Counted from the first letter of the stretch, positions 7,470 to 30,650 are shown. The stretch is 64,000 nt of DNA from Bacillota bacterium (GCA_015059285.1 SVAS01000002.1:2572-66571), one strand, 5' to 3'. Numbers and translations: made by a program. The notes: generated by a model from the letters alone, not told the origin.

Positions 7470-7543
7470 TGGCAGGGGTGGCAGGAGTCGAACCCACATG
7501 AACGGTTTTGGAGACCGTCATTCTACCATTGAATTACACCCCT
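7470..7543 (-). tRNA. trnW: tRNA-Trp (anticodon CCA)
   Basis: 74-nt cloverleaf read on the minus strand: AGGGGTG acceptor pairing with CACCCCT, anticodon loop CUCCAAA, T-arm GGGTTCGACTCC, 3' CCA encoded. A GC-rich hairpin lies just downstream at 7443-7462. Confidence 0.85.
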
Positions 7544-7620
7544 ATGTCAGAAATTATACCATATATTATCAATTTATTCAATAAAATTATGTAAATTCAT
7601 ATAATTTAATGGGTGATATT

Positions 7621-8049: not shown

Positions 8050-8086
8050 AAAAGATATTTGGTGAACTAAGTTCATTAAATATCTT

Positions 8087-9022: not shown

Positions 9023-9025
9023 TCA

Positions 9026-9044
9026 AGAGCCCATTTGCCACTAT
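9026..9044. repeat. Left terminal inverted repeat of intervening element (agagcCCATTTGCCACTat)
   Basis: Inverted match to 17711..17729, with 11-bp perfect core CATTTGCCACT. Confidence 0.6.
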
Positions 9045-9052
9045 TAATAAAT

Positions 9053-9853: not shown

Positions 9854-9890
9854 AATTAAATCTATTGTTATATATTATAACACTATTTAA

Positions 9891-11567
9891 TTATAGATTT
9901 GATTTTTTTTGATATTTTTTTACATTTTTGTCATAAGGATTTCTTGATAAATTTCTATTCTCATACTTAAAATTTATTTCTGGTATAACCTCATATTTGA
10001 ATTTAATATTTATATTTCTATTTTCATCTATTACAATTTTATCTATTAATGCATCAATTAGTTCTTTTTTGGGTTTATTTAAATCTAATAATTTTTTGAT
10101 TTTTTTAGTATAATCTGGCAAAATATTTGCTTTATTTTTTATGTTTTCAATTTTATTCTTTTCTGTTTCAATACTATTATTAATTTTCTTTAATTTCTTT
10201 TCTGATTGTACAGATAGTTCCTTATAAAGTTCAGCTGTTATTATTCCATCACATCTATCATTATATAAATTAGATAATCTATTAATTATTTGTTCTTTTT
10301 CTAAAGTTAATTTATCAATAATTTTATCAATACTTTCTGTTTCTTTATGTATATTTTTAACAACTTCTCTATTTAATTCTTGCAAATCTAATTCATTAAT
10401 AAATATAGATACAGCTGATTCAAATTGTTCTAATAATTGTTGTTCTAAATAATCATATGGATAAAAATGAGAAGAACATCTACCCCTTTTTGGATCTCTA
10501 GAGTATCTATTACAATTAATTGACCAGTAATCAAGTTTCTTTCTATAATAAACTGATAATCTATTACCACACTCTTTGCAATATATTTTTCCTTCAAATA
10601 TTCTTTTTGGTCTAGTCGTCTTTAAAGCATAATTTCTAGAATGTCTATTCTTTAAAGTTTGTACATATTCAAATGTTTTTTTATCTACTAATGGTTCGTG
10701 AGTATTTTCTACTATTATCCATAAGCTTTTATCTAATGTTATTTTCTTCTTTGATTTATAATTAACTTTTGATTGAGTGTGTTGTACCATATCACCTGTA
10801 TAAATTCTATTTGTAAGAATCTTTTTTACTGAAGATATATTCCACTCATCTCTAATAATTATTCTTGAAGAAAATTTAATATTCTTATATTGACTTGGAG
10901 TTGGTATATTTTCATTATTAAGTCTAGTTGCTATTTCTGTAGGACCAATACCATCTACTCGCCATTTAAATATTTTTTTTACTGCAGGAGCTGTTTTAGG
11001 ATCTGGTATTAAATGTCCCTTATCTTCTGGATCTCTCATATATCCATAACTCGGTTTACTACCTATAAATTTTCCATTACGTCTCTTGTCATTAAGTACA
11101 TTTTTTATCTTAATAGAATTTTGTTTACTATAATAATCATTACAAGCAATAATAAATGTTGATGAATCATTGCTTGCTTGATTTTTAAAACTATCGTATG
11201 ATTCTAGAATTGAAATAAATCTAATACTGTTTTCTGGAAAAAATGTTTCTATGTAATATCCTGTCATAACATGATCTCTACCAAATCTTGATAAATCTTT
11301 AACTATCACACAATTAATTTTTTTCTTTTTAATATCTTCTAACATTTTTTGAAATCCGGGTCTATCAAAATTTGTTCCTGAATATCCATCATCAACATAT
11401 TCTCCAGATAAATTAAAATTATTATTTTTAACATAACTTTTTAATAATTCTTTTTGATTAATAACACTCTCACTATCAGATTCATATTTTTTATCTTTAT
11501 CTTCTTGAGATAACCTAATATATATTCCTACATTAAATTCTTGTTCAATCAAGTAATTATTGTACAT
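9891..11567 (-). CDS. Large serine recombinase (resolvase/invertase catalytic domain + recombinase domain + zinc ribbon/coiled coil)
   Basis: 558 aa. N-terminal VGIYIRLSQEDKD with catalytic Ser, ...VIVKDLSRFGRD. The large C-terminal extension with Cys cluster (CKECGNRL...CNRY...C) and coiled coil is typical of SpoIVCA/phiC31-type integrases. Confidence 0.85.
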   Translation of the reverse strand: MYNNYLIEQEFNVGIYIRLSQEDKDKKYESDSESVINQKELLKSYVKNNNFNLSGEYVDDGYSGTNFDRPGFQKMLEDIKKKKINCVIVKDLSRFGRDHVMTGYYIETFFPENSIRFISILESYDSFKNQASNDSSTFIIACNDYYSKQNSIKIKNVLNDKRRNGKFIGSKPSYGYMRDPEDKGHLIPDPKTAPAVKKIFKWRVDGIGPTEIATRLNNENIPTPSQYKNIKFSSRIIIRDEWNISSVKKILTNRIYTGDMVQHTQSKVNYKSKKKITLDKSLWIIVENTHEPLVDKKTFEYVQTLKNRHSRNYALKTTRPKRIFEGKIYCKECGNRLSVYYRKKLDYWSINCNRYSRDPKRGRCSSHFYPYDYLEQQLLEQFESAVSIFINELDLQELNREVVKNIHKETESIDKIIDKLTLEKEQIINRLSNLYNDRCDGIITAELYKELSVQSEKKLKKINNSIETEKNKIENIKNKANILPDYTKKIKKLLDLNKPKKELIDALIDKIVIDENRNINIKFKYEVIPEINFKYENRNLSRNPYDKNVKKYQKKSNL

Positions 11568-12323
11568 TTAATCCTCCTTTTCTTTTACTTGATTGGATAT
11601 TAAGACAATTTAATAATAACGCGCTATTTAGAAAAATACAGCCCATTATTTTCACTTTCTTCATTTTCTTTTGTTATCTCTTCAATAAGATATTTTAATA
11701 TTAAATCTTTAAAAGTTATATTATTATTCATAGCAACACCTATTTAAAGTTATGTTTTGTTTATTTACTTTATTATTTTTTAAACACATTAAAATCCCCC
11801 TTTTTAATTATTAAAAAGTCCCTATGCTTTGGACATAAGAACTATTTTTCAGCTGTAAGTATTACTATAAGATTGTCATAAACATAATCTTTTAATAGAT
11901 TTTCTAGAACAGATTGAATTGTAATTTTTTTATTTTTAGTATTTGTCTAAATGCACCATTAAGATTAGAATCAATAACAAATTTAATTTGAATATTTTTT
12001 TCATTGTTCATTTTTTCATCTCCTTTCTTTAAATTTTGGTATCAGATTTATGTACCTAAAATTGCTAATTTTCAAATCTTGTTTCAATTAAAAAAAGCAG
12101 GATAACCCCTGTTTACAAACAACTCACCAGCGGTGAGTTTACCATTATTTTATAAGGCATTAGTAAAATTGTAAGTATATACATTTTAGTAAAGTGTTAT
12201 ACAATCGTACACACTTTTTCGCGTTTTTTTGAGCTTGTTTTCGTACCTAAAAATATAACTTTTTTAATATTTTTGGTACTTTAATTTTTATATTATTTAT
12301 TTTTAAAGGGGGTATGGTAGAAT

Positions 12324-12527
12324 ATGAAAAAAGCACTGACTTTATTTTTAAAATCAGCGCTAGATACACTCTTATGTACAGTTATTTCATATTCTACCGT
12401 AATTATAACACGTATTTTCCTTATATCAATATGGAACTTTTGTCTGAAAAAATGTCTGACGAAAACTCTAAGAGCCATTGAAAATACTGGTATTTTTTTA
12501 ATAGGTAAAAGCTTATCTAAAAAGTGA
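12324..12527 (+). CDS. Small hydrophobic protein (67 aa) with very strong RBS; function unknown (toxin-like or regulatory?)
   Basis: AAAGGGGGT RBS 7 nt upstream of ATG. Cys-rich hydrophobic peptide inside the element's 1-kb non-coding stretch. Weakly supported. Confidence 0.2.
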   Translation: MKKALTLFLKSALDTLLCTVISYSTVIITRIFLISIWNFCLKKCLTKTLRAIENTGIFLIGKSLSKK

Positions 12528-12563
12528 TTGACAGGGGTAGGTATTTTTTTGTTTTAAATTTTT

Positions 12564-13655
12564 TTATATTCCTGATTTTCTTCTATTACATTCTCTGCAT
12601 AACATTTGACAATTTTCTGGTGTTGTTTTACCACCTAAATGCCATGGAGTTATATGATCAGCTTCCATTTCCTCTATTTCAAAATGTTCTTTACAATTAG
12701 AACAAATACCTTTTTGTCTTTGATAAGCTTCTCTTTTTTGATTATCTGTAAAAGACCTAATACTTAAATATTTTTCTTTGCCAGTTATCAAATAATAATA
12801 TATCCCTGATTTTTTAGTTACATCATCATCTTTTAATAATTTTTGAATTTGCATTTCTAGTTTATCAGAATTATATTTTTGATCTTTATATTGGTTAAAT
12901 AAATTGCCCCAATCTAACCCTTTCATCTCTTTTCGATAAACTGGAAATAACCTCTTAACCCAATCTATAACATCTTGATAATACATCCATAATTCATTGG
13001 CATCATTATCATGTTGATGTTCTGACATATAGTCTTCAATTGTTTTACTATCTTTAGCAGAAATCCAATATAAAACTTTCTCTAAATAATCTTGTCTAAT
13101 AGTTGAACCACTCATGTATTTTTCACCAATTTGATAGGCAGGACAAGCAGTTTTACTAAAATGTCTTTTAGCATCAGTTAACCATTCTCCAGTATAAATT
13201 GCATTTCTTAATTCTTGATCTGTTAATTTTTCTCCAGCAATATTTATTATCTTAAACCAATCTTGTATTTCTTTATCATTACCTTTGCAAAAATAAATTA
13301 ATAATTTATAATTTAAAATATGATTTCTTTCAGTCTCTGTTAAATTGTGGAAAGCTCTACTATTGATAGAATAACTACCATCTACATATTCACAAATACT
13401 TATTGTTCTTTGTTGTCCATCTAATACTTCATATGTACCATCATCATTGCATATCCAGTACATAACATTCAACGGAAAATCACTATTAACACTATTAATA
13501 ACTTCATTTCTTTGTTTTTCATTATAAACAAATTCTCTTTGATATTTAGGTCTTATATTTAATTTACCACCATATCCTACAACACCATTCTCATCATCAT
13601 TAACATAATCTTTCACAACCTCACTAACAGGTATTTCTTTTAATTTAATTTCCAT
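12564..13655 (-). CDS. DUF262 (ParB-like nuclease, DGQQR motif) + C-terminal HNH endonuclease; GmrSD-like restriction nuclease
   Basis: YQREFVY ... LDGQQRTISI in the N-terminal DUF262. C-terminus DHITPWHLGGKTTPENCQMLCRECNRRK is a canonical HNH. 11-nt overlap with the upstream methyltransferase gene suggests an operon. Confidence 0.75.
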   Translation of the reverse strand: MEIKLKEIPVSEVVKDYVNDDENGVVGYGGKLNIRPKYQREFVYNEKQRNEVINSVNSDFPLNVMYWICNDDGTYEVLDGQQRTISICEYVDGSYSINSRAFHNLTETERNHILNYKLLIYFCKGNDKEIQDWFKIINIAGEKLTDQELRNAIYTGEWLTDAKRHFSKTACPAYQIGEKYMSGSTIRQDYLEKVLYWISAKDSKTIEDYMSEHQHDNDANELWMYYQDVIDWVKRLFPVYRKEMKGLDWGNLFNQYKDQKYNSDKLEMQIQKLLKDDDVTKKSGIYYYLITGKEKYLSIRSFTDNQKREAYQRQKGICSNCKEHFEIEEMEADHITPWHLGGKTTPENCQMLCRECNRRKSGI

Positions 13656-14751
13656 AATTTTTCTCCTCTTCTGTTTTTATTAATATTATTCTTGCATAAG
13701 GGACAACAGGATGCCCCTGTGAATCTAGCATATATAAATCTCCATCCACAGCTCCTTTGTGTTGAACTTCTTTACGATATTTTTTATGTTCCGGTTTATA
13801 GGGCTTTACTCCTATCTCCAAACCAGAGTTTGATATTCCTAAACCTAACAAATTAAATTGTTGAGGATTGTATTTATCAAGAAAAGTAATAGGAACTCCC
13901 ATATATCCATTGTAATCTTTAGGAATTTCTGTATATGAATTAATATTTATTGCATCAAAATTTTCATATTTTTGATATTTTTCTTTTGAATAAACTTCAT
14001 ATAATATCAATCTTTCATTATGCCTTTTCACTGGTAAATTCGTAAACCAACAAGATGTAGCAACTCTTACCATTTTTTTACCATCAATAATTTTATGGAA
14101 TTTTTCTGTACTTTCTGGAACAAAGAAATACATACCAACATTAAAATTTGTATATCCCGTTCTTATATTATCTTCTTTAAATAATTTAAAAATTTCTTTG
14201 TATGATAATGCATTTGTGTTGCCCATAATTATAAATTGTTTATTATATTCAATTAATTGTGCAACATACTCTCTAAATAAACTAAAAGGAGGATTGGTTA
14301 CAACAATATCAGATTCTTTTAATAATTCTATACATTCATCTGATCTAAAATCACCATCTTCTTTTAAATATGTTAATGTGTTTTTTTTGTTTTTAATTAA
14401 ATATTCAACATCCAACAAATCAGTAGCACCATCTTCATTATTGTCATCAACTTCTGTTATTTCTATCTTATAAGCTTTCTTATTGTCAGATAAAAGTAAT
14501 TGTGTATTTGCTACTGGCGATGTTGCATAACAAGTTGCGATTAGCTTTTTTAAGCCAAGAAAATTAAAATTCATTGCAAAGTATTTAAAAAAATTACTTT
14601 CATATGGATCATCACAATTACAAAATACAACTTTATCTTTAAATTCTTTCCTATAATTATTTAATTCTTTTTCTATATCTGATAATTGAGTGTAAAATTC
14701 ATCATTTTTTGCTTTATTTGCATTCCTTAAATCCTTATTTTTATTTGCCAT
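13645..14751 (-). CDS. N6-adenine DNA methyltransferase (NPPF motif IV; resembles EcoRI-methylase-like family)
   Basis: VVTNPPFSLFREY catalytic motif. N-terminal NDEFYTQ...VVFCNCDDP...SNFFKYF resembles M.EcoRI-family proteins (from memory, unverified). Confidence 0.65.
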   Translation of the reverse strand: MANKNKDLRNANKAKNDEFYTQLSDIEKELNNYRKEFKDKVVFCNCDDPYESNFFKYFAMNFNFLGLKKLIATCYATSPVANTQLLLSDNKKAYKIEITEVDDNNEDGATDLLDVEYLIKNKKNTLTYLKEDGDFRSDECIELLKESDIVVTNPPFSLFREYVAQLIEYNKQFIIMGNTNALSYKEIFKLFKEDNIRTGYTNFNVGMYFFVPESTEKFHKIIDGKKMVRVATSCWFTNLPVKRHNERLILYEVYSKEKYQKYENFDAININSYTEIPKDYNGYMGVPITFLDKYNPQQFNLLGLGISNSGLEIGVKPYKPEHKKYRKEVQHKGAVDGDLYMLDSQGHPVVPYARIILIKTEEEKNYGN

Positions 14752-14860
14752 ACTCGCACTTCCTAATAATTAAATTATATCATAAAAAAGCATCTTTTTT
14801 TGAATTTTGGTAATATTTTCCTTATAAAAATTAAATTTTAGCAAATAAAAAGAAAGAATT

Positions 14861-15715
14861 TTATCTTTCTTGTCTATTTTTTGATAATTCACTCACGATT
14901 AAATCTTCAGAATGCAAATTGTTATTTTTTCCTAATAATAAATTTTCATAAAACTTAACCAAATAACTTTTATCTTCTTTTACACCTAATTTATTATTAA
15001 AATAATTACTTCTAACTAAGGCATTTCTAAAATACACAGATTTCTCTTTAAATAAACTATTATCTACATTATACCCTAAACTAATTAAATATTTTTCTAT
15101 AAATAAAGCTGTTGTTCTTGTATTACCTTCTCTGAATGGATGTACTTGCCATATATTAGAAGAAAATTTAGTTATATTATTTATAACTTCCACTATATTC
15201 ATATCTTTATAATTTTTTTCTTTTTCTAAAGATATATCATATTCCAAAGATTCTTCTAAAGTTCTACAATCTCCATATGCTACAGAATCTTTATTTAAAA
15301 TAATTTCCGGTTTAGAAAAATCAACTACTCTAAAATTACCAGCAAACTCATAAACATCTTGAAATAGATATTTATGTACATATTTTAAATAATCTACAGA
15401 CAATTCAAATTTATCTTCTTGTAATAATTCTACAATTCTGGTTGAAACAAAATCACATTCTAATTCATTATAGTTTACTTCATTTTTCTTTTCTTTTTCT
15501 ACATAATAATTTCTTAATTCTTCTTTTACTTGATCTAAACTTAATTTACCAACAATATTTTCTTCTAAAAGTTCTTCAAGTTGTTTAGAAGGTTTTAAGT
15601 TATCAACTTCTTGCAAACCAATAGCCATATCCCATTGAATCTGTTTTATATAATTATTAGTTTGATATACTTCTTCATATTCATTAACACTTGAATCAAA
15701 TTCTTTTTCATTCAT
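14861..15715 (-). CDS. Fic/DOC family protein (putative AMPylator/toxin)
   Basis: HPFREGNTRTTALF matches the Fic active-site motif HPFx[DE]GNGRxxR. Confidence 0.75.
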   Translation of the reverse strand: MNEKEFDSSVNEYEEVYQTNNYIKQIQWDMAIGLQEVDNLKPSKQLEELLEENIVGKLSLDQVKEELRNYYVEKEKKNEVNYNELECDFVSTRIVELLQEDKFELSVDYLKYVHKYLFQDVYEFAGNFRVVDFSKPEIILNKDSVAYGDCRTLEESLEYDISLEKEKNYKDMNIVEVINNITKFSSNIWQVHPFREGNTRTTALFIEKYLISLGYNVDNSLFKEKSVYFRNALVRSNYFNNKLGVKEDKSYLVKFYENLLLGKNNNLHSEDLIVSELSKNRQER

Positions 15716-15779
15716 AAGATAACCTCCTTAATTAAAAAATTATATTTCTAATATCACTTTAACATTAAAAATAAATATT

Positions 15780-17633
15780 TTAAATTTTTCTTACAGAATC
15801 ATATGCAATTGATATTTTCTCAAATATATTATCTGTTTCATTAATTAATATTTTTTTAACTTTATCTATATTTTTTATAAAATTAAACAAAGAGTATGTA
15901 TTTTTTTCGGAATCTCTATATACATCTATATAATCAATATAAAATGAAATTGTATCATTTACAATATCGTACAAAAAACCTACAGTTGTTTCCATTTGCA
16001 AATTTTTATTTCCATGAAATTGTTTGTTTCTTAAATAATACGAATTCATTAACAATTCTTTTGCTTCATTATGAAACTTTTGAAAATATAATTCGTATTG
16101 AGATACTAGTTTTATAACTTGTTCATATTTCCAAGTCAAAAAATCACAATTATTTGGATTTCTTTTATCAAAATTTAAAAAAATATTTTCTACAAAATTA
16201 TTACTTAATTTATTAAACCCTTTATACATTTTATTAATTTGCACTGCGGTTAAATATATATATCCTGATATCATTCTATCTGCTACCAAATAACTTCCAT
16301 ATTCCTCTAATGATTTAGAAATATTATCCCCTGCATTTCTAAATAAAGTTTCCAAAGCAAACCAAGTATTAGTAAACTTAGTTAATGTTGATTCTGAATT
16401 CTTATAATACGGCAACAATTGGACTGCCTCATCTATAATTTTATTGATATCATTATCACTATTATCAATAATATATCTTTTAAATACGTCTGAATACGCA
16501 ATTCTATCTTGTGTTAATGGTTTAAAAATATCATCATAAAAATTATAATAATTTATAAATTTTTTCTGCTCTTTGTGTTCTATTAAAAGATAATCTCCTA
16601 CAGCTCCCACTTTTATTCCAGAATATAGCATTGAACCAATAAACGGTTGAAGTACTTTCTGTTTAAATTTACGAATTGCTTGCCATATATCTTTACTATA
16701 AATTTCTGATGATAAATAATAATTATTATCATCCTTTATTTTTAAATTACTGATAATTTCTGTTAAAATTTTTTTATTATTAATTTTTGAGTCCTCTAAA
16801 AATTTAACTAATCCAGACTTACTATATATAATATAATTATTATTTCCAGATTGTTTTAATGCATTTAATAATTTTTCATCAAAATCTTTATCCATTTTTA
16901 TAAATATCGTATACTTATTGTCTGTACCATATTGTTCTGCAAACTTAATAAACATATCACTAAAAGAAGAAAAAGACTTTCTCTTAAAAAAATTTCTATA
17001 CGCATCACGTATTATTTTTTTAATTTCAAAAATACTTATTCCTATATAATCTATCAATAAAGCAAAATATTCATTAGACAATTCTGCTATTTTATCAAAA
17101 TTATCATATTTAATCTCTTTATTTGTTACTAAATCATATAAGTTATCTGATATAGTATCAAAATACTTATTATTAATTAAACTTATATAAATTAATTTTA
17201 AATTTTCTATTAAATTTAAATCATCATTTTCATTAATAAATTGAATATATCTTTTTTTATGATCTTCATTTATAAATTTATTGGTTTTTATAGCATCTCT
17301 TATATAATCTATTTTGTATTTTGGAATTTTAGCCATTTTTTCTTTAGTTTCAAATTGTTTATTTATATCCTCATAATAAGAAATTATTTTATTTATTTTT
17401 CCTAATAATGAATTGTTCAAGTTTCTACTTCCCAACATAGAAATACTACTTAAATTTTCTATAATATAGTTTAAAAAGAACATCATATTTCTATTCTTTA
17501 ATCCAATTTTTTCAAAATCATTATTACAGACAATATTTTTACTAGAAAAAAGCAATTGTTTAATAAATCTTTCTTTATTTTCCAAAACCTTACTACTTGT
17601 TAACAAATACTCTTCCTTAACCATATTACACAT
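15780..17633 (-). CDS. Large (617 aa) uncharacterised protein with C-terminal HEPN-like Rx4H motif (LRNKQFHG); putative abortive-infection/defense effector
   Basis: No NTPase motifs. The C-terminal helical region ...TWFALETLFRNAGD...YYLRNKQFHGNKN is suggestive of a HEPN RNase fold. Located in the defense cargo. Confidence 0.35.
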   Translation of the reverse strand: MCNMVKEEYLLTSSKVLENKERFIKQLLFSSKNIVCNNDFEKIGLKNRNMMFFLNYIIENLSSISMLGSRNLNNSLLGKINKIISYYEDINKQFETKEKMAKIPKYKIDYIRDAIKTNKFINEDHKKRYIQFINENDDLNLIENLKLIYISLINNKYFDTISDNLYDLVTNKEIKYDNFDKIAELSNEYFALLIDYIGISIFEIKKIIRDAYRNFFKRKSFSSFSDMFIKFAEQYGTDNKYTIFIKMDKDFDEKLLNALKQSGNNNYIIYSKSGLVKFLEDSKINNKKILTEIISNLKIKDDNNYYLSSEIYSKDIWQAIRKFKQKVLQPFIGSMLYSGIKVGAVGDYLLIEHKEQKKFINYYNFYDDIFKPLTQDRIAYSDVFKRYIIDNSDNDINKIIDEAVQLLPYYKNSESTLTKFTNTWFALETLFRNAGDNISKSLEEYGSYLVADRMISGYIYLTAVQINKMYKGFNKLSNNFVENIFLNFDKRNPNNCDFLTWKYEQVIKLVSQYELYFQKFHNEAKELLMNSYYLRNKQFHGNKNLQMETTVGFLYDIVNDTISFYIDYIDVYRDSEKNTYSLFNFIKNIDKVKKILINETDNIFEKISIAYDSVRKI

Positions 17634-17710
17634 CCTTTATACATCTATATTATATCATAACAAGATATATTTTTATAATTAAATATAGATCTTAATACCC
17701 AATCCTCAGT

Positions 17711-17729
17711 TACAGTGGCAAATGCACTC
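17711..17729. repeat. Right terminal inverted repeat of intervening element (tacAGTGGCAAATGcactc)
   Basis: Reverse complement of the left IR core CATTTGCCACT. Confidence 0.6.
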
Positions 17730-17730
17730 C

Positions 17731-17993
17731 CCACCTCCCGCATTTATGTGATTAGATATAACTATAACATCACTATTATTCCCATAGGCATCCAAAACTC
17801 TTCTAACTCTTTCATTAGGATTAACAGTTTCATCCATCATTCTAGTCATTTTTACTGGTATCCCCAATTCATTTAAGCGATTATAAATATAATTGGATAT
17901 TTTTAAAGTTAATTCTTTTTCTATTATTCCGCCACCTACAGCACCACCGTCAGTTCCTCCATGTCCCGCATCAATTACAATTTTATAATTCAT
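17731..17993 (-). pseudogene. N-terminal fragment of the split Amidase_3 gene (MNYKIVIDAGHGG...SNHINAGGG), terminated by element-derived codons ECICHCN*
   Basis: DAGHGG, EK..L.I, MTR, and SNHINAGGG motifs of the MurNAc-LAA (Amidase_3) N-terminal half. The reading frame runs into the element and stops after 7 codons. Confidence 0.65.
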
Positions 17994-18068
17994 GAAATAT
18001 TCCTCCTCAAAATATTTTATGATAAATGTCTACATATGTTCAAATTTAGAGCCAACAAAAAAAGAGTA

Positions 18069-19184
18069 TTATTCAATACTCTTAGTTAATTCAACTTTCA
18101 CATCTTTAATTTTACCACTACGGTAATACTTAATTTCTACTTTATCACCAACTTGATGTTTATAAAGCAAGAAACGGAAATGAGCAATGCTTTTAATTTC
18201 AGTTCCATCAAATTGTAAAAGTATATCTCCTTTTTTTAAGCCTGCATTAAAAGCAGGGCTTCCTTTTTCTACTTCAACAACAGCAATACCATTAGTAACA
18301 TCATCTGGAATAATTATATTGTTTCTATATAAAGCAAAAGTATCGCTTATATCTAACATACTAACACCAAGTAATGGTCTTTGAACTTCTTCTCCAGCTT
18401 CTAACTGATCTACAGTAGCCATAACTAATTCAATCGGAATAGCAAATCCCATACCTTCTATTTCATCTTTTACTAATTTTAAAGAATTAACCCCAATTAC
18501 TTCACCATTGATATTACAAAGAGGTCCGCCACTATTCCCCGGATTAATCGCTGCATCAGTTTGAAGAACTTGCATCATAAATTCACCATTAGATAAACTA
18601 ACTTCTACAGTTCTATCTTTTCCAGATAAGATACCTTTAGTAACTGTACCCATATACTCTAGACCAAGTGGGGAACCAACTGTAAATAATGTATCCCCTA
18701 GTTCTAACGCATCACTATTTCCAATTTCAGCGACTGAAATAACTGCATCAGAAGAAATTGATAAAACTGCTATATCAGCATATGTGTCACTCCCTAATAC
18801 TGATGCCTCTACTGTTTGTCCAGAAGTATTAGTTATCTGAACATTATCAGCATCCTCTATAACATGATTATTAGTTATAATGTATCCATTTTTATCTTCT
18901 TTTTTGTAAACAAAACCTGTCCCACTACTAATTGTTTTACCATTTTTGTAAGATTCTATATACATAACAGCATCATACACTTTATCTAGAGAACTTTTAA
19001 TAGTATCTGTTTCTGTAATTGAAACTTCTTTAATAGTTCTTTCAGTCAACTCATTTTCAGGTATATATTTTATAACTACAATTGTACCTGTTACTCCTAC
19101 AAAAAGAGTTATAATAATTGTTAATAAATAAATTAATTTTTCTCTCATAAGTCCTCCTAAGCTAAATCTACTATATCGTGCCAA
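18069..19184 (-). CDS. htrA: HtrA/DegP-family serine protease (trypsin-like domain + PDZ), membrane-anchored
   Basis: N-terminal TM, catalytic TDAAINPGNSGGPL serine motif, C-terminal PDZ. Confidence 0.8.
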   Translation of the reverse strand: MARYSRFSLGGLMREKLIYLLTIIITLFVGVTGTIVVIKYIPENELTERTIKEVSITETDTIKSSLDKVYDAVMYIESYKNGKTISSGTGFVYKKEDKNGYIITNNHVIEDADNVQITNTSGQTVEASVLGSDTYADIAVLSISSDAVISVAEIGNSDALELGDTLFTVGSPLGLEYMGTVTKGILSGKDRTVEVSLSNGEFMMQVLQTDAAINPGNSGGPLCNINGEVIGVNSLKLVKDEIEGMGFAIPIELVMATVDQLEAGEEVQRPLLGVSMLDISDTFALYRNNIIIPDDVTNGIAVVEVEKGSPAFNAGLKKGDILLQFDGTEIKSIAHFRFLLYKHQVGDKVEIKYYRSGKIKDVKVELTKSIE

Positions 19185-20089
19185 TTATCTGGAAATCCAA
19201 TTCTATTTAAAATTCTATTTAATGGCACAACATCTACAATTCCATCTAAATGATCTACTTCATAACTAACTTCTCCTATTAAGTCATGGAATTCTTCTTC
19301 ACTTATCATTTGCTTTAACATGATAATAAGTGCGAATAAATCATTTTTACCAAAGATATATTCACCATCTGTCTTATCAATATCTAACATACGATGATAC
19401 TTATTATCTGGTATTTGTCTTTGCGTTCTATAATCGTATAAAATATCTTCATGAGCACATATATTTCTATAGTTTGCTAGTAAAGATATATATATTCCAA
19501 GTGTTTCCGCATCCATCTTATATAATTCAGCAATAAACATCCTATCATCTGATTTTAGTATGCTATAAAGTTCTGAAATAATTCCTAAAGATAAAACTTT
19601 TACTAAAATCCACATTGGAATATAACCATAATTATCAATATAATGCATTGTCGCAGTATGTTTACGACCATTCACTCTAATTTGCCTTTTCATCTTATTT
19701 AAAACATCTTTGACTTGACGAGTTTTAATAGCATCTTGAGTAAAATTTTTAGGATCTAAATAATCTTTTTCTTTATAACCATATTTTCTTGATAATTCAT
19801 AACTAATAATAGATTTTAAATTATTTTCTACTACTAATATATACTTAAACATAATATTTCTAACTTTGCGATCAAATAAAAACATACCATATAATTCTTC
19901 AAAAGTGGTTCCCTTAATAAAAGTATTGTCTTTATCTGAGCGCATAAAAAGATGACGATATCCACTAACAAAGAAGTAGTTTTCTCTAATAAGAACTTCT
20001 TTTGCTTTTCTAATATCGTTTATCATTAACCCCTTAGATGATAGAATTTCAATTTGTTCGTCTAACGTTTTAAATATCTTACTTTTCAT
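19157..20089 (-). CDS. Abi_2 (AbiD/AbiF-like) abortive infection family protein
   Basis: N-terminus MKSKIFKTLDEQIEILSSKGLMI...YFFVSGYRHLF matches Abi_2 family conserved start. 310 aa. Confidence 0.6.
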   Translation of the reverse strand: MKSKIFKTLDEQIEILSSKGLMINDIRKAKEVLIRENYFFVSGYRHLFMRSDKDNTFIKGTTFEELYGMFLFDRKVRNIMFKYILVVENNLKSIISYELSRKYGYKEKDYLDPKNFTQDAIKTRQVKDVLNKMKRQIRVNGRKHTATMHYIDNYGYIPMWILVKVLSLGIISELYSILKSDDRMFIAELYKMDAETLGIYISLLANYRNICAHEDILYDYRTQRQIPDNKYHRMLDIDKTDGEYIFGKNDLFALIIMLKQMISEEEFHDLIGEVSYEVDHLDGIVDVVPLNRILNRIGFPDNWHDIVDLA

Positions 20090-20162: not shown

Positions 20163-20825
20163 CTAATTATCATAAAAGTAATTTGTCGTTGCTTCTAAAA
20201 TGATATTTGCGACTTTTTGCTGATAAGAATTTTGTTTCAACAAATATCTTTCATTAGGATTAGAAATAAAACCAACTTCTATTAAAATACCAGGTCTTTC
20301 TACCCTTTTACTCAAATACAATGTTTGTTTTTTCTTATATTCTCTTTTAGTAGAAAGATGCTTTTTAAATGTTTCTTGAAATATTTTAGCAATTTCTTCA
20401 TTCTCATTGTTTGTATCACTATAAAACATCTGCGCACCTTTCCAAGTACTTGAGGTTTCTGCATTTAAGTGAATAGATAAATATAAATCACAATTAGAAC
20501 GATTAATGATATTTCCTCTTCTTGATAAATCACTTCTTTTTCTATTAATTGTATTTGGAACAGCTAAATCATAATCACCATATCTAGTTAAATAAACAAT
20601 TGCTCCATTCTGTTCTAATACTTGCTGTGTTTTTTTAGCAATCTCCAAATTAATATCTGATTCCTTTAAATCCTTATAAATAGCTCCCGGATCAACACCA
20701 CCATGACCAGGATCTAAATATATTACCTTTCCTAATAATATTATATCATTTGTTTTAGCATCTACAAAACTAACTATACTTATACTTACAAGAAACATAA
20801 TCAAAATAAATAATCTATGTTTCAT
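20163..20825 (-). CDS. cwlD: N-acetylmuramoyl-L-alanine amidase, Amidase_3 with N-terminal signal/anchor (CwlD-like germination-specific amidase)
   Basis: Signal peptide then IYLDPGHGGVDPGA...ESDINLEIAKK...IVYLTRYGD...SIHLNA...GILIEVGFISNPNE. Size and architecture are like CwlD. Confidence 0.7.
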   Translation of the reverse strand: MKHRLFILIMFLVSISIVSFVDAKTNDIILLGKVIYLDPGHGGVDPGAIYKDLKESDINLEIAKKTQQVLEQNGAIVYLTRYGDYDLAVPNTINRKRSDLSRRGNIINRSNCDLYLSIHLNAETSSTWKGAQMFYSDTNNENEEIAKIFQETFKKHLSTKREYKKKQTLYLSKRVERPGILIEVGFISNPNERYLLKQNSYQQKVANIILEATTNYFYDN

Positions 20826-20928: not shown

Positions 20929-21349
20929 TTATCCTTTTATACGATATGTATCAATTGTTCTTTGTACTGCTAGTGATGGATCAAACACTTCATCAATTCT
21001 TTCTTTTCCTAATCTAGCAAGCCATAATTTTATTGGTTCCGCATTCTTACTAGGTATAGCCTCTATTATTCTAAACATTCCTTCTATATCAACTACATCT
21101 GTTAATCTATATTTACCATCCTGAGATTTCAATTTCAATTAGTCACAATTTGTGACCAGTTCATTTACTTCTTTTTGAAAGTCTTGATTTCAACACATTC
21201 CAATAATGTCTAGCATCTTTACTTTCAGTTAAAGCTCCAACAATATCAACAACACTAATATAATATTTATCTTCATTCTTATCCCATATAGTTCTTATGG
21301 TTTTATTATGAAACAATTTATTTATTAAGTGCTTATTTTCTTCTTTCAT
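20929..21349 (-). pseudogene. Disrupted gene (two adjacent same-strand ORFs, 62 + 69 aa) resembling a Bro-N/DinD-like DNA-damage-inducible protein
   Basis: ORF 21161..21349 (IRTIWDKNEDKYYISVVDIVGALTES) and ORF 20929..21138 (...EPIKLWLARLGKERIDE...) are separated by 22 bp. Together they resemble an N- and C-terminal half of one protein, consistent with a frameshift or stop disruption. Family assignment is weak. Confidence 0.3.
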
Positions 21350-21410
21350 ATAATCACCTTCCTACTTATATTATTCGACGTAAGGAAAGCTTTTTCCTTT
21401 TTTATTTGTT

Positions 21411-21452
21411 TAAAAAAACAAAAAACTAATTCAAAAAATTGAATTAGTTTTT
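21411..21452. terminator. Bidirectional rho-independent terminator downstream of DGR target gene
   Basis: A-run, 9-bp stem CTAATTCAA/TTGAATTAG with loop AAAA, then T-run. Confidence 0.45.
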
Positions 21453-21631
21453 ATCTCAAATAATTCTAAGTAGCAAGATTGGCGAAATAAATTTCGCTAT
21501 CTAGCTACTATAGGACAAGACAAGCTTGCCCTCAACAAGAAATCAAAGATTTCTTACATACGTGCTCTTATTATCATTCTTTTCAAAACCTTATTTCTAA
21601 CTTCGTATTACATTACTACAAATACTTAAGT

Positions 21632-22693
21632 CTAGATGACAGATTTTGAGATTTCGATAACTGGGCGCACACCGTAGTAGAAACCATCGTTGACGTTGAA
21701 GTAGTCAACGTAACCGTCGTAGCCCACGTACCAAGCGCTGCCCGCATAGTCCGCATAAGCAGAGCTTAGCCAGAAGCCATATGGTGGGTTGGATAAATTT
21801 CCATACAACCATGCTGGACATCCAACGTCATATTCTACACATCCTAACAAATCTATTGCTTCATCATGTGTTAACATTCGAGCTCTTGCATTTGTTCTTT
21901 CTATTGCGTATTGTCCTTGATCGTCTGCTAATGTATATGTTTTTGCTGGGATGTTTGTCCAACTACTTGTTTTACTTTCTAAGTAATTTAACGCTGTTAG
22001 TGGACCTTTTTCGTTTGTTGAACAATAATCTCCGGCTTCTCCACATCCATAGTCTTTTTCACTAATCCATGCTACTGTTTCTTCATCTACGTTTCTATCC
22101 ATGATTAATGTTAATGTCCCTGTTGTAGCATCGTCTTTTACTACGTAGAATGTCTTCGCGTCTTCTTTATCGTTTACTTTAACTTGTACTGCTATTCCTG
22201 CTTTTATCGCATCTTCACTACATGTTTCGTTTGCATTTGTGATACATGTTGCTGTTGATGTAATTATTGGGTTTGCTGCTTTTTTATATTCACAGCTTCC
22301 TTCATATTTTGTTGTTGTGATTGCACTTTCGCTTGTTGCTTTTGTTACACAATGTGCTCCATTATTTACAGCAATAGCAACTTTTCCATCTTTTGTTACT
22401 GTTATTTTTCCATTTGTTGGAAGTGCCCCCTTAACTTCTAGTTTGTTTTCTCCAACAAATTCTCCGTTTGTTATTGTAAACTCTACATCTGAAGCCATTC
22501 CATTTTCTAATAGTGAACTTGCATAATACATCTCTCCTGCATCAATAAGTCCATATGCAGTATCTTCAAATGCACTTTCTCTTGCACTACTGATAATGTT
22601 CATTATTACTGGTACTGCAATAAGCGCTATAATTGCTAGTATCACTATTACTGCTAGTAACTCGATCAATGTAAACCCTTTATCTTTTCTCAT
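21632..22693 (-). CDS. DGR target protein: type IV pilin-like (class III signal peptide MRKDKG|FTLIELLAVIVIL, Glu+5) N-terminus with C-terminal C-type-lectin-fold variable domain
   Basis: Canonical prepilin cleavage and methylation motif. C-terminal ...AWLYGNLSNPPYGFWLSSAYADYAGSAWYVGYDGYVDYFNVNDGFYYGVRPVI carries the VR. Start moved to the ATG at 22693, 5 nt after GGTGGTGA (track used an upstream GTG). Confidence 0.8.
   Translation of the reverse strand: MRKDKGFTLIELLAVIVILAIIALIAVPVIMNIISSARESAFEDTAYGLIDAGEMYYASSLLENGMASDVEFTITNGEFVGENKLEVKGALPTNGKITVTKDGKVAIAVNNGAHCVTKATSESAITTTKYEGSCEYKKAANPIITSTATCITNANETCSEDAIKAGIAVQVKVNDKEDAKTFYVVKDDATTGTLTLIMDRNVDEETVAWISEKDYGCGEAGDYCSTNEKGPLTALNYLESKTSSWTNIPAKTYTLADDQGQYAIERTNARARMLTHDEAIDLLGCVEYDVGCPAWLYGNLSNPPYGFWLSSAYADYAGSAWYVGYDGYVDYFNVNDGFYYGVRPVIEISKSVI
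21661..21765 (-). repeat. DGR variable region (VR) at 3' end of target gene
   Basis: 105-bp region about 80% identical to TR 23054..23158. 19 of 21 differences fall at TR adenine positions (AAC/AAT codons in TR vs TAC/GGC/TTC/GAC/AGC/GAT etc. in VR). The 3' boundary is a GC-rich CTGGGCGCACACCG block (IMH-like) in a 27% GC context. Confidence 0.8.
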
Positions 22694-23053
22694 ATCTATC
22701 ACCACCTATCGTTTCATTCTATTATCAGTTTAGCAGTTTTTTATTATTTTCTTTTGTTGTATTACTATTTGTTTTATACTTTTTTCTTTTTTCGACTTTT
22801 TTCTCTCTCTTTTTTACTGCTACTCTGACTTTATTTATTATACATTTTTATCTATCTTCAATTTGTTTTATAACATAAATATTTCAACAAAAAAATCGTA
22901 GTGAACAGACTACTTCATTTTCAATTTCTTTACTAGTGAATTCATCATCTACGATATAGTATTCCTTAAAGTTACCTTTAAGAGGAAAAACACTTGTTTT
23001 CTTTAGCTTTTATTTACTAACCTTAGTCCAGTAAAACGTAGTTTTAAAGAAAT

Positions 23054-23158
23054 CTGGGCGCACACCGTAGTTGTTGTCATTGTTGACGTTGTTGTTGTTA
23101 ACGTTACCGTCGTTGTTCACGTTCCAAGCGTTGTTAGCATTGTCCGCATTAGCAGAGC
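23054..23158 (-). repeat. DGR template region (TR), AAC-rich (13 AAC + 3 AAT codons)
   Basis: Lies in the non-coding gap between the RT gene and the target. On the coding (minus) strand it reads ...AAT GCG GAC AAT GCT AAC AAC GCT TGG AAC GTG AAC AAC GAC GGT AAC GTT AAC AAC AAC AAC GTC AAC AAT GAC AAC AAC TAC GGT GTG CGC CCA G. Confidence 0.8.
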
Positions 23159-23240
23159 AACAATAAACAAAAACCCGAGTAAATACATTACAGCATTTTC
23201 CCTATAATATATAACTAATATAGTTATATATGAAGTTATA

Positions 23241-24443
23241 TTAAGTTTTATACATTATTTTTTTATCTATTATCATAACTTCTGAACCAATAAGGTCATA
23301 TTTTTTTTCATATTTATTTAAAGTATTAGCGACTAGTTTTTTAGTATGCCCATAACTTAAATGTCCCAAATAACTACCCTTGACTTGTAGAAATTTTTCA
23401 TATGGAATAACATTTTGTTCAACTAAACTATTTAACTTTTTAATTTTTCTTTTAAATCTTTTTTTTGTTTGATTTTTTACTTTCATAATCACTTTATTGT
23501 TTTTTATCATATATTTAAAACCTAAGAATTCAAAAGGTTCTTTATGATTATAAATGCGTGTTTTTTTGTTTAACTCTAGTTTATATTTATCAAGTATTTT
23601 TTCTATTTCTTGTAAACAATATTCTAAATATTTTTTATCTTCATGAATTAAAATTCCATCATCCATATATCTTATATAATACTTAATTTTTAATTTTTCT
23701 TTTATATAGTGATCTAATTCATTTAAATATGTAATTGCGAAAACTTGACTAGACATATTTCCTATTGGAAGCCCTTTCCCTTTTTTGTATTCAGGAAGGC
23801 TATTTATTTCTTCAATTAGTTTTTCTTTATCCTGGGCCTTACTATTTAAAATTTTATTGATTTCATGCTGTTTTACTTTTTGTATAGTCTTATTAACATA
23901 TTCTTCATTAGTACTATCAATTATTAAATCAAATATGTTAATTACTTCCTTATCTTTGATTTTTGTTCTAACAAGTTTTTTTATAATATCATGATCTAAA
24001 TTAAAAAAATATTTAGAAATATCAAATTTTAAAACATAAAAAGGTTTGTTTTTTACTTCATTTAAATATTTTTTTAAAAGTTGTATTCCATAATGCGTTC
24101 CTTTTCCTTTTCTGGTTGCTATATTTTGATCAATTAATGATTTATCAAAAACATTTATCATAAAATATTCACTTACAACATGATTAATAATTTTATCAAT
24201 AATATTTTGTGACATTATTAATCTAAGTTTTGGTTCTTTTATTAAAAATACATTATATCTGCCTGGTACATACTCTCTACGTTCTAGAAGCGTTTTAATA
24301 TAAATCATATTAGATACATAATAATTATCAAATTTTTCTAATTTCTTTTTATTTTTAGTATTAATTCTAACTCTATGGTCATATACTTTTTGAATTTTTT
24401 GGATATCAATTATCTGATTGTATAGATTGTTTTTCCTTTTCAT
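23241..24443 (-). CDS. DGR reverse transcriptase
   Basis: 400 aa. RT motifs including LPIGNMSSQ (the DGR-specific I/LGxxxSQ motif 4) and IRYMDDGIL (YxDD). Adjacent to the TR. Confidence 0.9.
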   Translation of the reverse strand: MKRKNNLYNQIIDIQKIQKVYDHRVRINTKNKKKLEKFDNYYVSNMIYIKTLLERREYVPGRYNVFLIKEPKLRLIMSQNIIDKIINHVVSEYFMINVFDKSLIDQNIATRKGKGTHYGIQLLKKYLNEVKNKPFYVLKFDISKYFFNLDHDIIKKLVRTKIKDKEVINIFDLIIDSTNEEYVNKTIQKVKQHEINKILNSKAQDKEKLIEEINSLPEYKKGKGLPIGNMSSQVFAITYLNELDHYIKEKLKIKYYIRYMDDGILIHEDKKYLEYCLQEIEKILDKYKLELNKKTRIYNHKEPFEFLGFKYMIKNNKVIMKVKNQTKKRFKRKIKKLNSLVEQNVIPYEKFLQVKGSYLGHLSYGHTKKLVANTLNKYEKKYDLIGSEVMIIDKKIMYKT

Positions 24444-24762
24444 TTTTCATCCAAGTATTTGTCATTTTATTAATTTCTAATAAATGTCTTCCTACTACTT
24501 CATACTTTTTAAAACTTATTAATTTCTTATCTAAACTTACTTTTATATAATAATTGATCATGCGTATTCTAACTATTAAATCTTTCATATATTTATCATT
24601 TTTATGGACATTTGCTTTATAAACTAATTCCAATAAATCATAACAACTATCCATAATTTTGTTTTTTAATATTACTTCTGTATGTGGATAATTACAAATA
24701 GCCTTTTCAATATATTCAATAGTCTTTTTTATTCGTGTTGCAATTAATAATTTATCTTGCAC
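24406..24762 (-). CDS. avd: Accessory variability determinant (Avd-like four-helix-bundle protein)
   Basis: 118-aa basic helical protein. It overlaps the RT start by 38 nt. Its position and size match Avd. Sequence similarity to Avd was not verified. Confidence 0.55.
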   Translation of the reverse strand: MQDKLLIATRIKKTIEYIEKAICNYPHTEVILKNKIMDSCYDLLELVYKANVHKNDKYMKDLIVRIRMINYYIKVSLDKKLISFKKYEVVGRHLLEINKMTNTWMKNEKEKQSIQSDN

Positions 24763-25169
24763 AAAAGTTCCTCAATTTCATTTAAGACTGTTTTTAAATT
24801 AGAATTACCTAAATTAGCTTTTAACACTTCATATATTTTATTAATCCTATTTACAAAAATATCATAGTTATCTAATCTAAAACTATATTTACTATAAGAG
24901 TTATTCTTATATTTATATTTCTGTATATTATCATCATTAACAATCAGATAATTTATATGTTTGTTTTCTAATGCTTTTTCAATTTTTGAAAGACTTGTAA
25001 TAGGAAAACCAACTTTAATTAAGTTGGTTGTTTCTTTTATTTTATAATTAAATAATCTATTCATAACAATAGCATCATCATTTAAAGATAAATAGAAGCT
25101 CCCACATTTGATAAGAATTATGTAATCCTTATAAATTTCTTTATAAGTATTGTATTTTTCTTTTAACAC
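24744..25169 (-). CDS. Standalone MutS domain I (mismatch-binding domain)-like protein, first gene of the DGR operon
   Basis: YKEIYKDYIILIKCGSFYLSLNDDAIVMNRLFNYKI...KVGFPITSLSKIEKALENKHINYLIVND aligns with the MutS N-terminus (Y..iK..yPd.lLffr.GdFYElf.dDA...s.lL.i.Lt...PmaGvP.ha...Yl.kLv..G..VaIceQ). The Glu of the Phe-x-Glu motif is replaced (FYL). 19-nt overlap with the avd start. Confidence 0.5.
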   Translation of the reverse strand: MLKEKYNTYKEIYKDYIILIKCGSFYLSLNDDAIVMNRLFNYKIKETTNLIKVGFPITSLSKIEKALENKHINYLIVNDDNIQKYKYKNNSYSKYSFRLDNYDIFVNRINKIYEVLKANLGNSNLKTVLNEIEELLCKINY

Positions 25170-25302
25170 TATATAACCTCCAACTTAAAATAAAACATAC
25201 AACATACTACTTAATCTAAAATGCTTACTTCTATCACCTTCCTACTCTTTATATATATTATCACAAAAGTTCACTAATTGCTACCGTTTTAACAAATATT
25301 TG

Positions 25303-25340
25303 TACAAAAAAACGATTTGATTTTTATTTCAAATCGTTTT
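25303..25340 (-). terminator. Rho-independent terminator after the 25339..25857 gene
   Basis: Stem AACGATTTGA/TCAAATCGTT with a 9-nt loop, followed by a T-run on the minus strand. Confidence 0.55.
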
Positions 25341-29981: not shown

Positions 29982-30650
29982 TTAATTATTACTAATTTTT
30001 TTCTTTCTAATCACTATAACACTTATTAATCCAATTAAAGAAATTACTAACAAGATAATACTTGTTCCTACATTATCATTCGTTTGTGGATTTTCAGGTG
30101 AGGAAATAGACGATGAAATTATTTCCCACTGTGCATAAAATGTCCTATTGCTATCAATTCCTGATTCAGCTAAAATAAGTTCTAATTTTGTGCCACCAGT
30201 CTTTTCTGTATAATAACCCAAAAATTTATAACCTTCTCTAGTAGGTGTTTCTAATGCACTTTCCATTCCTATTTCCCATTTTTCAATAGTTAAAGTATCA
30301 CCAGTTGTAAAATTCCCACCATTTGCATCAAATATAACTTTATATTTTTCATTGTTAAAAACTAAAATTGTGCTGCCTATTGAAACATTATAATCCCCTA
30401 AAGTCCTTCCGTTTTCCATTTCGTTATCGTCAAATATTAATTTTTGATTTTCAGGTAAAAAACTATTATCTAATTGATAGATTTTTTCTTTTACCGCTTC
30501 TATTGTATCAGATGATTCCACTTCTAAAGTTATTTGTCCTATAGATGGTTTTTGTACAACTATTTGCATAGCACTTATTTTTGGTATATAAATAAATACA
30601 AAGAAGAATATAATAAATGGGATTATTTTATATTTTTTCACATTAATCAC
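29982..30650 (-). CDS. Secreted protein predicted to be anchored by sortase B (NPQTN motif): signal peptide + ubiquitin-like domain (about 45% identical to eukaryotic ubiquitin) + Listeria/Bacteroides (Flg_new) repeat + NPQTN sorting signal
   Basis: The mature N-terminus MQIVVQKPSIGQITLEVESSDTIEAVKEKI...QKLIF...ENGRTLGDYN...ST aligns with ubiquitin [30 protein letters not shown]...QRLIF...EDGRTLSDYN...ST. Then KVIFDANGGNFTTGDT...YKFLGYYTEKTGG. C-terminus ENPQTN + hydrophobic stretch + RKKK. Confidence 0.55.
   Translation of the reverse strand: MINVKKYKIIPFIIFFFVFIYIPKISAMQIVVQKPSIGQITLEVESSDTIEAVKEKIYQLDNSFLPENQKLIFDDNEMENGRTLGDYNVSIGSTILVFNNEKYKVIFDANGGNFTTGDTLTIEKWEIGMESALETPTREGYKFLGYYTEKTGGTKLELILAESGIDSNRTFYAQWEIISSSISSPENPQTNDNVGTSIILLVISLIGLISVIVIRKKKISNN

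Follow-up and report, generated by a model that had tools for sequence, protein, structure and literature searches.

A diversity-generating retroelement with a type IV pilin-like target in an uncultured Bacilli lineage, and the record of its variable repeat in natural populations

A stretch of 64,000 nucleotides from a Bacillota bacterium (GCA_015059285.1, SVAS01000002.1:2572-66571; hereafter the window) carries a diversity-generating retroelement (DGR) at 21632..25169. The first-pass annotation, made from the sequence alone, had described a complete DGR consisting of a MutS-I-like open reading frame (ORF), avd, a reverse transcriptase (RT) gene, a template repeat (TR) and a target gene with a variable repeat (VR). 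All five parts proved to be where it had placed them, on the minus strand and in the order MSL (the MutS-domain-I protein), avd, RT, TR, target. This inventory was correct in the parts that it named, but it overlooked both the type IV pilin-like nature of the target and a structured RNA that follows the TR.

Template and variable repeats in the window and across populations

The TR (23054..23158, minus strand) is 105 nt long and contains 37 adenines, and the VR (21661..21765, minus strand) encodes residues 310-345 of the target, ending nine codons before its stop. The two align without gaps, being equal at 84 of 105 positions (80%), and the 21 mismatches comprise 11 A>T, 8 A>G, one T>G and one C>T. 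In other words, 19 of 21 mismatches sit at TR adenines, the proportion reported at first pass; given 37 A in 105 bases, the hypergeometric P for at least 19 out of 21 is 6.5e-9. Mismatches distributed evenly over the four bases would have argued against a DGR, but the differences are adenine-specific instead. Read in the frame of the target, the TR holds 13 AAC and 3 AAT codons, just as counted previously, and the VR has TAC, TAT, GGC, AGC, GAC, TTC or GAT at these sites. A scan of both strands of the 64-kb window at the non-A positions of the TR, using the full length as well as 40-nt segments, revealed no second VR.

The homology between TR and VR stops in both copies at a GC-rich block, GGTGTGCGCCCAG (CTGGGCGCACACC on the plus strand), which lies at the 3' end of the VR (21661..21673, minus strand) and in the TR (23054..23066, minus strand); right after the block the flanks diverge. 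The first-pass annotation had the homology end at this same block. At the TR ends of relatives it is kept as GG(C/T)GT(C/G)CGCCCAG, and it is intact in a remote target paralog whose VR matches the TR but mutated in a decayed one (both described below). Judging from these sequences, the block appears to mark the homology boundary and can be called IMH-like (initiation of mutagenic homing). The 3' flank of the VR, about 120 nt long (21540..21660, minus strand), is near-identical to the flank of the remote paralog; it may contribute to target recognition, or the duplication of the gene may simply have included it. The 250-nt intergenic stretch after the target stop codon (21380..21631, minus strand) forms a run of five stem-loops, one of them an AT-rich terminator-like hairpin, with a DNA fold energy of -51.6 kcal/mol (z = -8.1 versus shuffles). 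Only about the first 120 nt of this stretch are shared with the 3' flank of the remote paralog, and comparison of the stretch with Rfam gave no match better than E about 1.

The first-pass annotation had also proposed looking for VR heterogeneity in metagenomes. Loci obtained from exact-protein look-ups, and then from the contigs of members of the target's 90% cluster, provide it in the form of four VR alleles residing on otherwise identical DNA from different metagenomes. The identical RT protein is present on at least 23 metagenome contigs, and samples containing the locus include JGI 3300018475, 3300024269, 3300024270, 3300022660 and 3300032167 and ENA ERZ27248351. Two orthologous loci from other metagenome samples, L094 and L095, are 100% identical to the window over 3994 bp (25293..21300) outside the VR, and differ from it at 25 and 24 positions, respectively, all within the 105-bp VR. 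Another two loci, L093 and L096, for which about 1470 bp are covered, have 11 and 24 differences from the window, again in the VR only. Of the 36 positions found to vary among the four alleles, 33 correspond to TR adenines, and proteins having the same backbone as the target differ only at Asn-templated residues. The TR itself is identical in all seven loci with the same RT and also in L094 and L095, and all ORFs, the TR and the structured RNA are intact and identical in every locus compared. The L095/L096 allele contains a 3-nt GTC duplication. In L093, the 5' part of the VR is the same as in the window and all differences are confined to roughly the last 40 nt on the 3' side, which fits a replacement anchored at the 3'-terminal GC-rich block of the VR and resolved at a variable distance upstream. 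Since there are no substitutions in the flanks of about 4 kb, intergenic DNA included, the changes in the VR must be younger than any neutral substitution there. We therefore consider it very probable that the locus is a chromosomal DGR that has recently been active in natural populations.

Metagenome assemblies often break at the VR (L002) or within 22675..22784, where L003-L006 end and L093 and L096 start. The latter breakpoints, seen in several independent assemblies, fall in the A-rich 5' untranslated region and the beginning of the target gene and thus outside both TR and VR; they could be due to strain variation, to low complexity or to similarity between paralogs. A separate metagenome scan with the target protein produced 117 matched patterns, among which no relative was confirmed, and the lone match in an exact-pattern scan with the 3' end of the VR (L092) proved to be an unrelated chance match.

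Proteins of the retroelement and the RNA abutting the template repeat

The RT (23241..24443, minus strand; 400 aa) matches RVT_1 with an E-value of 1.6e-17 and contains IGNMSSQ and YMDD, that is, the IGxxxSQ and YMDD motifs noted earlier. Its best solved relative is 8ub7_A, a 328-aa 'Reverse transcriptase' (E 9.6e-24), whose IGSLTSQ and YMDD align to the corresponding motifs of the RT, and which we take to be the bRT of Bordetella phage BPP-1. Group II intron RTs are weaker (E 5e-12 or worse), and retron-type RTs also stay behind. Judged by its motifs and its best solved relative, the RT does not side with group II intron or retron RTs that lack the SQ motif, an outcome that the first-pass annotation had named as one that would count against it. 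The combination of motif 4 ([I/V/L]GxxxSQ) and YxDD places the RT, as far as sequence motifs can tell, in the DGR clade. It could still be argued that the protein is a retron, group II intron or defence RT and that the likeness of TR and VR is incidental, and NCBIfam indeed gives matches below threshold for group II intron RT/maturase and for Drt3a. However, these matches score far under the cutoffs (99 versus 300 bits and 48 versus 200 bits), Rfam found neither intron RNA domains nor retron msr/msd, and the SQ motif, Avd and an adenine-specific TR/VR pair are all present. Such an explanation is almost certainly wrong.

The avd gene (24406..24762, minus strand) encodes a protein of 118 aa that exceeds the Pfam bAvd threshold (49.8 bits, cutoff 40) and matches NCBIfam DivGenRetAVD with an E-value of 7e-16 (58 bits, below the cutoff of 80). 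It overlaps the RT gene by 38 nt, so that the description of an Avd-like 118-aa gene running over the RT start was accurate. Our counts of Avd, MSL and RNA neighbours cover 80 RT-related loci, in nearly all of which an Avd ORF adjoins the RT.

MSL (24744..25169, minus strand; 141 aa), which overlaps avd by 19 nt, is a stand-alone MutS domain I, the mismatch-binding domain; its Pfam MutS_I score of 30.1 bits against a gathering threshold of 20.6 bears out the earlier designation as MutS-I-like. An MSL ORF stands beside avd and RT in about 55 of the 80 related loci, sometimes after the RT, and at L070:2349-3869 the MSL domain is fused to the RT C-terminus. Among 53 relatives, G23 and F25 are invariant and Y26 nearly so. 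The Phe-X-Glu motif, on the other hand, is incomplete: it reads F25-Y-L27 in the window, and while Phe is found in 53 of 53 relatives, the Glu position is E in only 10 of 53. MSL thus retains the MutS domain I fold and the wedge Phe, usually without the Glu. Architecture D was defined from 16 MSL-containing examples, the Legionella DGR among them (Wu et al. 2018, PMC5758913), an Msl gene is present in three Bacteroides DGRs, and host MutS has been reported to reduce retrohoming in an all-or-nothing way (bioRxiv 10.1101/2024.11.15.621889). Because host MutS lowers retrohoming, a mismatch-binding domain devoid of Glu could plausibly shield the heteroduplex of cDNA and VR, and we put this forward as a hypothesis for the role of MSL.

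Directly abutting the 3' end of the TR is a structured RNA of 168 nt (22889..23056, minus strand), which is conserved in the closest relatives and supported by covariation. It consists of five helices, with a CUAAGG loop, a UAGUA...GAA element and a final stem followed by U7. In an alignment of eight loci (A4), 92% of cells are paired, compared with 38-53% when the partners are slid by 1-3 columns, and 15 pairs change on both sides, a number reached by none of 500 shuffles; RNAalifold supports the structure as well. A covariance model built from the eight-sequence alignment (R1) finds the RNA at E <= 0.01 in 35 of the 80 RT-related loci; every match is on the same strand as the RT and starts at the 3' end of the TR. 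The RNA stays attached to the TR both when the TR is upstream of MSL-avd-RT, as in most relatives, and when it is downstream of the RT (window, L012, L014-L017, L030 and L057), which indicates that TR and RNA behave as one module.

In searches of Rfam at the gathering threshold, no family was found for this region or for 15 related loci. Full-length matches to RT-14 (RF02921), with the CUAAGG hairpin loop and the UAGUA...GAA element in common and an RT gene alongside, do occur, but all score below the gathering threshold of that family (values below), and we therefore refer to the RNA as RT-14-like and do not assign it as an RT-14 member. It differs from RT-14 as known so far in that a position directly 3' of the TR is shown here. 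RT-1 to RT-19 were described as motifs near RT genes, with RT-10 equated with the TR-RT spacer of BPP-1 and the idea that other RT motifs serve DGRs offered as speculation only (Weinberg et al. 2017, PMC5737381). By analogy, the structured RNA probably corresponds to the spacer (Sp) RNA of BPP-1, positioning and priming cDNA synthesis, and its last stem and U-tract probably double as the terminator of the operon.

The pilin-lectin target, its paralogs and competing explanations

The target gene (21632..22693, minus strand) is preceded by the ribosome binding site AGGTGG and encodes 353 aa from ATG 22693. The mechanical ORF begins at GTG 22705; the ATG, used in the identical NCBI protein MBE6144531.1, is the likely start. 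The N-terminus, MRKDKG/FTLIELLAVIVILAIIALIAVPVI, has a class III signal in which G is followed by FxxxE and then by the hydrophobic alpha-1 helix, and it matches Pfam N_methyl with 36.8 bits (cutoff 21.2) and TIGR02532 with 34 bits (cutoff 16.3). An AlphaFold model based on 115 homologs (predicted local distance difference test score, pLDDT, 92.5) displays the long N-terminal helix packed on a beta-sheet that characterises the pilin fold, and the C-terminus is a C-type-lectin (CLec)/DUF1566 domain whose C-terminal part is formed by the VR. The target is, in short, type IV pilin-like and ends in a C-type-lectin/DUF1566-like domain, and it is presumably displayed on a type IV pilus or pseudopilus. 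Upstream of the gene, TTTATGTTATA ... TGTATAAT (22837..22879, minus strand) is a promoter-like region that is common to paralogous pilin genes, and its conservation makes it a candidate promoter of the target gene.

DGRs acting on pilins have received little attention. A 2024 survey placed a GspG-type pilin domain among the scarcely represented VR-holding domains (PMC11661182) and another paper mentions 'putative pilin structures' (PMC6642488). Our search of the literature on DGRs in connection with pilin, type IV pili or RF39 returned such passing mentions only and no paper on type IV pilin targets in gut Bacilli.

The target belongs to a large family: more than 6000 of 8000 candidates tested match at E <= 1e-5, and of the relatives listed at least 11 (about 14 with cluster members) are recorded with the same longest contig, of 575,737 bp. 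There are many target paralogs per genome. Contig L008, from the same samples as the RT locus, has three of them among housekeeping genes, and tig, greA and ABC transporter genes are found as neighbours of target paralogs. The first (L008:3822-4877) differs from the TR of the window in its VR by 24 changes at A sites, none at non-A sites and two codon deletions; it retains the GC-rich block intact and has the same 125-nt 3' flank as the target. Its VR was written in the past from the TR family of the window. The second has 12 non-A differences and a mutated GC-rich block, and we read its VR as decayed, and the third is unrelated in the VR region. In a related DGR (L019:2501-9344), four tandem pilin-like target paralogs are arranged two on each side, and at least two VRs match one TR.

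The pilin paralogs (L008:3822-4877, 10001-11059 and 12959-13942; P0003, P0004, P0132 and P0133) have mosaic N-terminal domains, in which segments such as TITNGEF/TIEDGKF and ESAITTT/ESRVTTV are reassorted between paralogs with one shared VR. This suggests gene conversion among paralogs, and one may ask whether the VR differences between strains arose in the same manner, as in pilE/pilS, rather than by reverse transcription. The abundance of mosaic paralogs in this genome group and the conserved 5' and 3' flanks that they have in common would make such exchange feasible. However, 33 of the 36 variable VR positions are TR adenines with the non-A scaffold positions all kept, the known donor paralogs would import non-A changes or codon deletions, and there are zero differences just outside the VR over 4 kb. 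We accordingly give gene conversion only a very slim chance of being the source of the VR alleles, and retain reverse transcription from the TR as their origin.

Several observations nonetheless count against the picture of an active retroelement that diversifies a displayed pilin. The variation of the VR is known between assembled consensus sequences only, not from cDNA, transcripts or within-sample minor alleles, and a few VR differences lie off adenines, namely 2 of 21 in the window and 4 of 77 when the four alleles are taken together. The VR of paralog L008:3822-4877 is unchanged in five strain backgrounds, which means that diversification in trans is not currently evident. A hairpin or cruciform like that of BPP-1 was not found directly after the VR, strong stem-loops beginning about 100 nt downstream. 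Full-length RT-14 matches stay below the gathering score of 48.1, at 28 bits in the window, 43 in L012, 38.8 in L014 and 35.7 in L030, all of them at the same TR-adjacent place. Finally, neither the window nor about 800 kb of related loci contains a GspE/PilB-type Walker motif of a pilus assembly ATPase; only ABC transporters were seen. The restriction to consensus sequences, together with one remote VR that is static across strains and another that is decayed, could be taken to mean that the cassette is a fossil, formerly active and now inactive, with alleles that are old polymorphisms. This we regard as very unlikely: old alleles are difficult to reconcile with four VR versions on backgrounds lacking substitutions in about 4 kb of flanks, intergenic DNA included, and an inactive cassette with ORFs, TR and RNA that are intact and identical in all loci.

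Locus, host and relation to known systems

The MSL-avd-RT-TR-RNA cassette is compact, taking up about 2.4 kb. A promoter-like extended -10 element, TGTGATAAT (25257..25265, minus strand), matches the consensus in sequence and is a candidate promoter element of the MSL-avd-RT-TR operon; upstream of it, a hairpin and T-run (25340..25309, minus strand) close the preceding gene. The window has about 25% GC and includes an operon for ribosomal proteins that has an S10 leader; immediately upstream of the cassette are housekeeping genes, namely rluA, a methyltransferase gene and ldh. It is chromosomal, and the host is an uncultured AT-rich Bacilli/'Tenericutes' lineage of the gut or rumen. We found 406 RT-related loci in metagenome-assembled genomes (MAGs) of gut and rumen Bacilli. 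The MAGs that contain relatives of the RT derive from humans (Hadza), rabbit, chicken, mouse and rumen and bear the labels uncultured Bacilli, Tenericutes or Firmicutes CAG; one of them is a circular chromosome of 1.26 Mb. Some small-genome MAGs hold two or three separate loci of this RT family (L023, L032 and L063 belong to one MAG), and L054 and L064 are two RT loci 18 kb apart on one contig.

Given that many DGRs are carried by phages, the element might be thought to be borne by a phage or another mobile element, its target being a phage receptor-binding protein and not a cellular pilin. A recombinase and a defence island are located 1-13 kb off, and we found no synteny between the flanks of the cassette and those of the closest RT relatives. 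Yet no phage structural genes adjoin the cassette, the housekeeping genes just mentioned do, and target paralogs are embedded among tig, greA and ABC transporter genes. The closest phage RTs, with those of Bordetella, Faecalibacterium and crAss-like phages included, are at most 37% identical, and the target has both a prepilin signal and a pilin fold. A phage or mobile origin of the present cassette is, in our view, extremely unlikely, and we continue to treat it as a chromosomal DGR with a cellular target.

The surroundings have some features of their own. The mobile or defence island (7470..20089) adjoins tRNA-Trp (7470..7543) and encodes a large serine recombinase (9891..11567), GmrSD-N with an HNH nuclease (12564..13655), an EcoRI-type adenine methylase (13645..14751), a Fic protein (14861..15715), a 617-aa protein without a Pfam match (15780..17633) and Abi_2 (19157..20089). 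An Amidase_3 fragment (17706..17993), taken together with a full Amidase_3 gene (20163..20825), hints at an insertion or a duplication. Two same-strand ORFs of 62 and 69 aa, 22 nt apart and without a Pfam match (20929..21349), have the look of a single gene interrupted by a stop codon, and the genes called here vary by sample (62+67, 62+69 and 78+69 aa in L001, L093 and L096). On the other side, directly upstream of the DGR operon and separated from it by the terminator-like hairpin, is a 172-aa protein matching Pfam T4SS_pilin (PF18895; 25339..25857), a homolog of which occurs elsewhere in L014. Further away, a 222-aa protein (29982..30650) joins a ubiquitin-family domain (Pfam E 1.2e-14) to a Listeria-Bacteroides repeat, a pairing unusual in bacteria.

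Taken as a whole, the locus is a well-formed DGR of a known class. It matches architecture D (MSL and avd, without HRDC), and its avd-RT-TR order is that of core organisation B2, both as listed by Wu et al. 2018 (PMC5758913), where architecture D comprises the MSL-containing cassettes. The order avd-RT-TR-target is consequently not unusual, contrary to the suggestion at first pass that it is the less common one. What the locus adds to the class are useful extras, namely a population-level record of activity, a pilin-lectin target family and an RT-14-like RNA attached to the TR.

The BPP-1 DGR (mtd-avd-TR-brt) shares with it an RT with IGxxxSQ and YMDD, Avd, adenine-specific differences between TR and VR, a VR at the 3' end of a gene with the C-type-lectin fold, a GC-rich block at the 3' homology boundary and a structured RNA directly 3' of the TR (Sp, or Rfam RT-10, in BPP-1; PMC5737381). 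In contrast, the element in the window is cellular, follows the order MSL-avd-RT-TR-target with the additional MSL gene, has an RNA that is RT-14-like and not RT-10-like and a target that is pilin-like and not a tail fibre, and lacks a hairpin directly after the VR. DGRs of architecture D in Legionella and Bacteroides (Bfr/Bth/Bun) likewise encode a small MutS-like protein with avd and RT; the present host, unlike theirs, is an AT-rich uncultured Bacilli/'Tenericutes' lineage, and the MSL-avd-RT core is kept in about 55 of the 80 related loci. The Bacteroides elements resemble it further in that they too, in a gut bacterium, diversify the adhesive C-terminal part of a pilus-type protein, but their targets belong to type V pili, whereas the window target has the N-terminus of a type IV (class III signal) pilin. 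The C-terminus of the target is similar to Treponema denticola TvpA and Legionella Lcl (DUF1566); TvpA and LdtA, however, are lipoproteins, and the window target is anchored by the pilin alpha-1 helix. Lastly, Gram-positive bacteria have modular type IV pilins, such as PilB and PilC of Streptococcus sanguinis and PilW of Clostridioides difficile, in which a pilin module is likewise fused to a large C-terminal functional or lectin-type module; PilW is a weak Foldseek match. Unlike for these proteins, filament assembly of the window target is only predicted. None of these pilins is, to our knowledge, diversified by a retroelement.

How the parts might work together can be outlined as follows. 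A single transcript would start at a promoter near 25260, run through MSL, avd, RT, the 105-nt TR and the 168-nt RNA, and end at the stem and U-tract near 22889. RT and Avd would copy the TR RNA into cDNA, misincorporating opposite template adenines, with the structured RNA positioning and priming the synthesis, by analogy with the spacer RNA of BPP-1. The cDNA would then replace the VR in the 3'-terminal part of the target gene, 1.4 kb further downstream, anchored at GGTGTGCGCCCAG and extending to a variable degree in the 5' direction, and MSL would probably bind the densely mismatched cDNA:VR heteroduplex. The target, made with a prepilin-type signal (KG/FTLIE), would be shown on a type IV pilus or pseudopilus, and its lectin/DUF1566 domain could carry up to about 10^21 variants of the predicted binding surface (16 AAY, 3 GAC and 1 TAC codons).

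It is inviting to go one step further and imagine variation at two tiers in these genome-reduced gut and rumen Bacilli, whose modular type IV pilins, tipped with lectin heads, form a large family. The gene next to the DGR would be hypermutated, and the dispersed paralogs would archive VRs and swap segments by gene conversion; the TR and the RT-14-like priming RNA would form a portable module, relocated from a position upstream of the protein genes to one downstream of them, and a MutS-domain-I protein devoid of the repair-signalling Glu would guard the mismatched heteroduplex from mismatch repair. We offer this scheme as a tentative one that, in its entirety, is rather less likely to be right than wrong.

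Whatever becomes of the scheme, the locus supplies a clean natural record of DGR action, in which identical 4-kb backgrounds carry four alleles, including one partial replacement that has its anchor at the 3' end. The compact cassette and the invariant Phe of MSL offer a direct way to probe the role of this protein. In dozens of loci, an orphan, Rfam-like RNA (RT-14-like) can now be placed immediately 3' of the TR, in support of the view that DGRs in general include priming RNAs of the spacer type. For the organisms themselves, an abundant gut lineage that is uncultured and has small genomes, the finding connects a retroelement with type IV pilin-like adhesins, in parallel with the type V pilus finding in Bacteroides.

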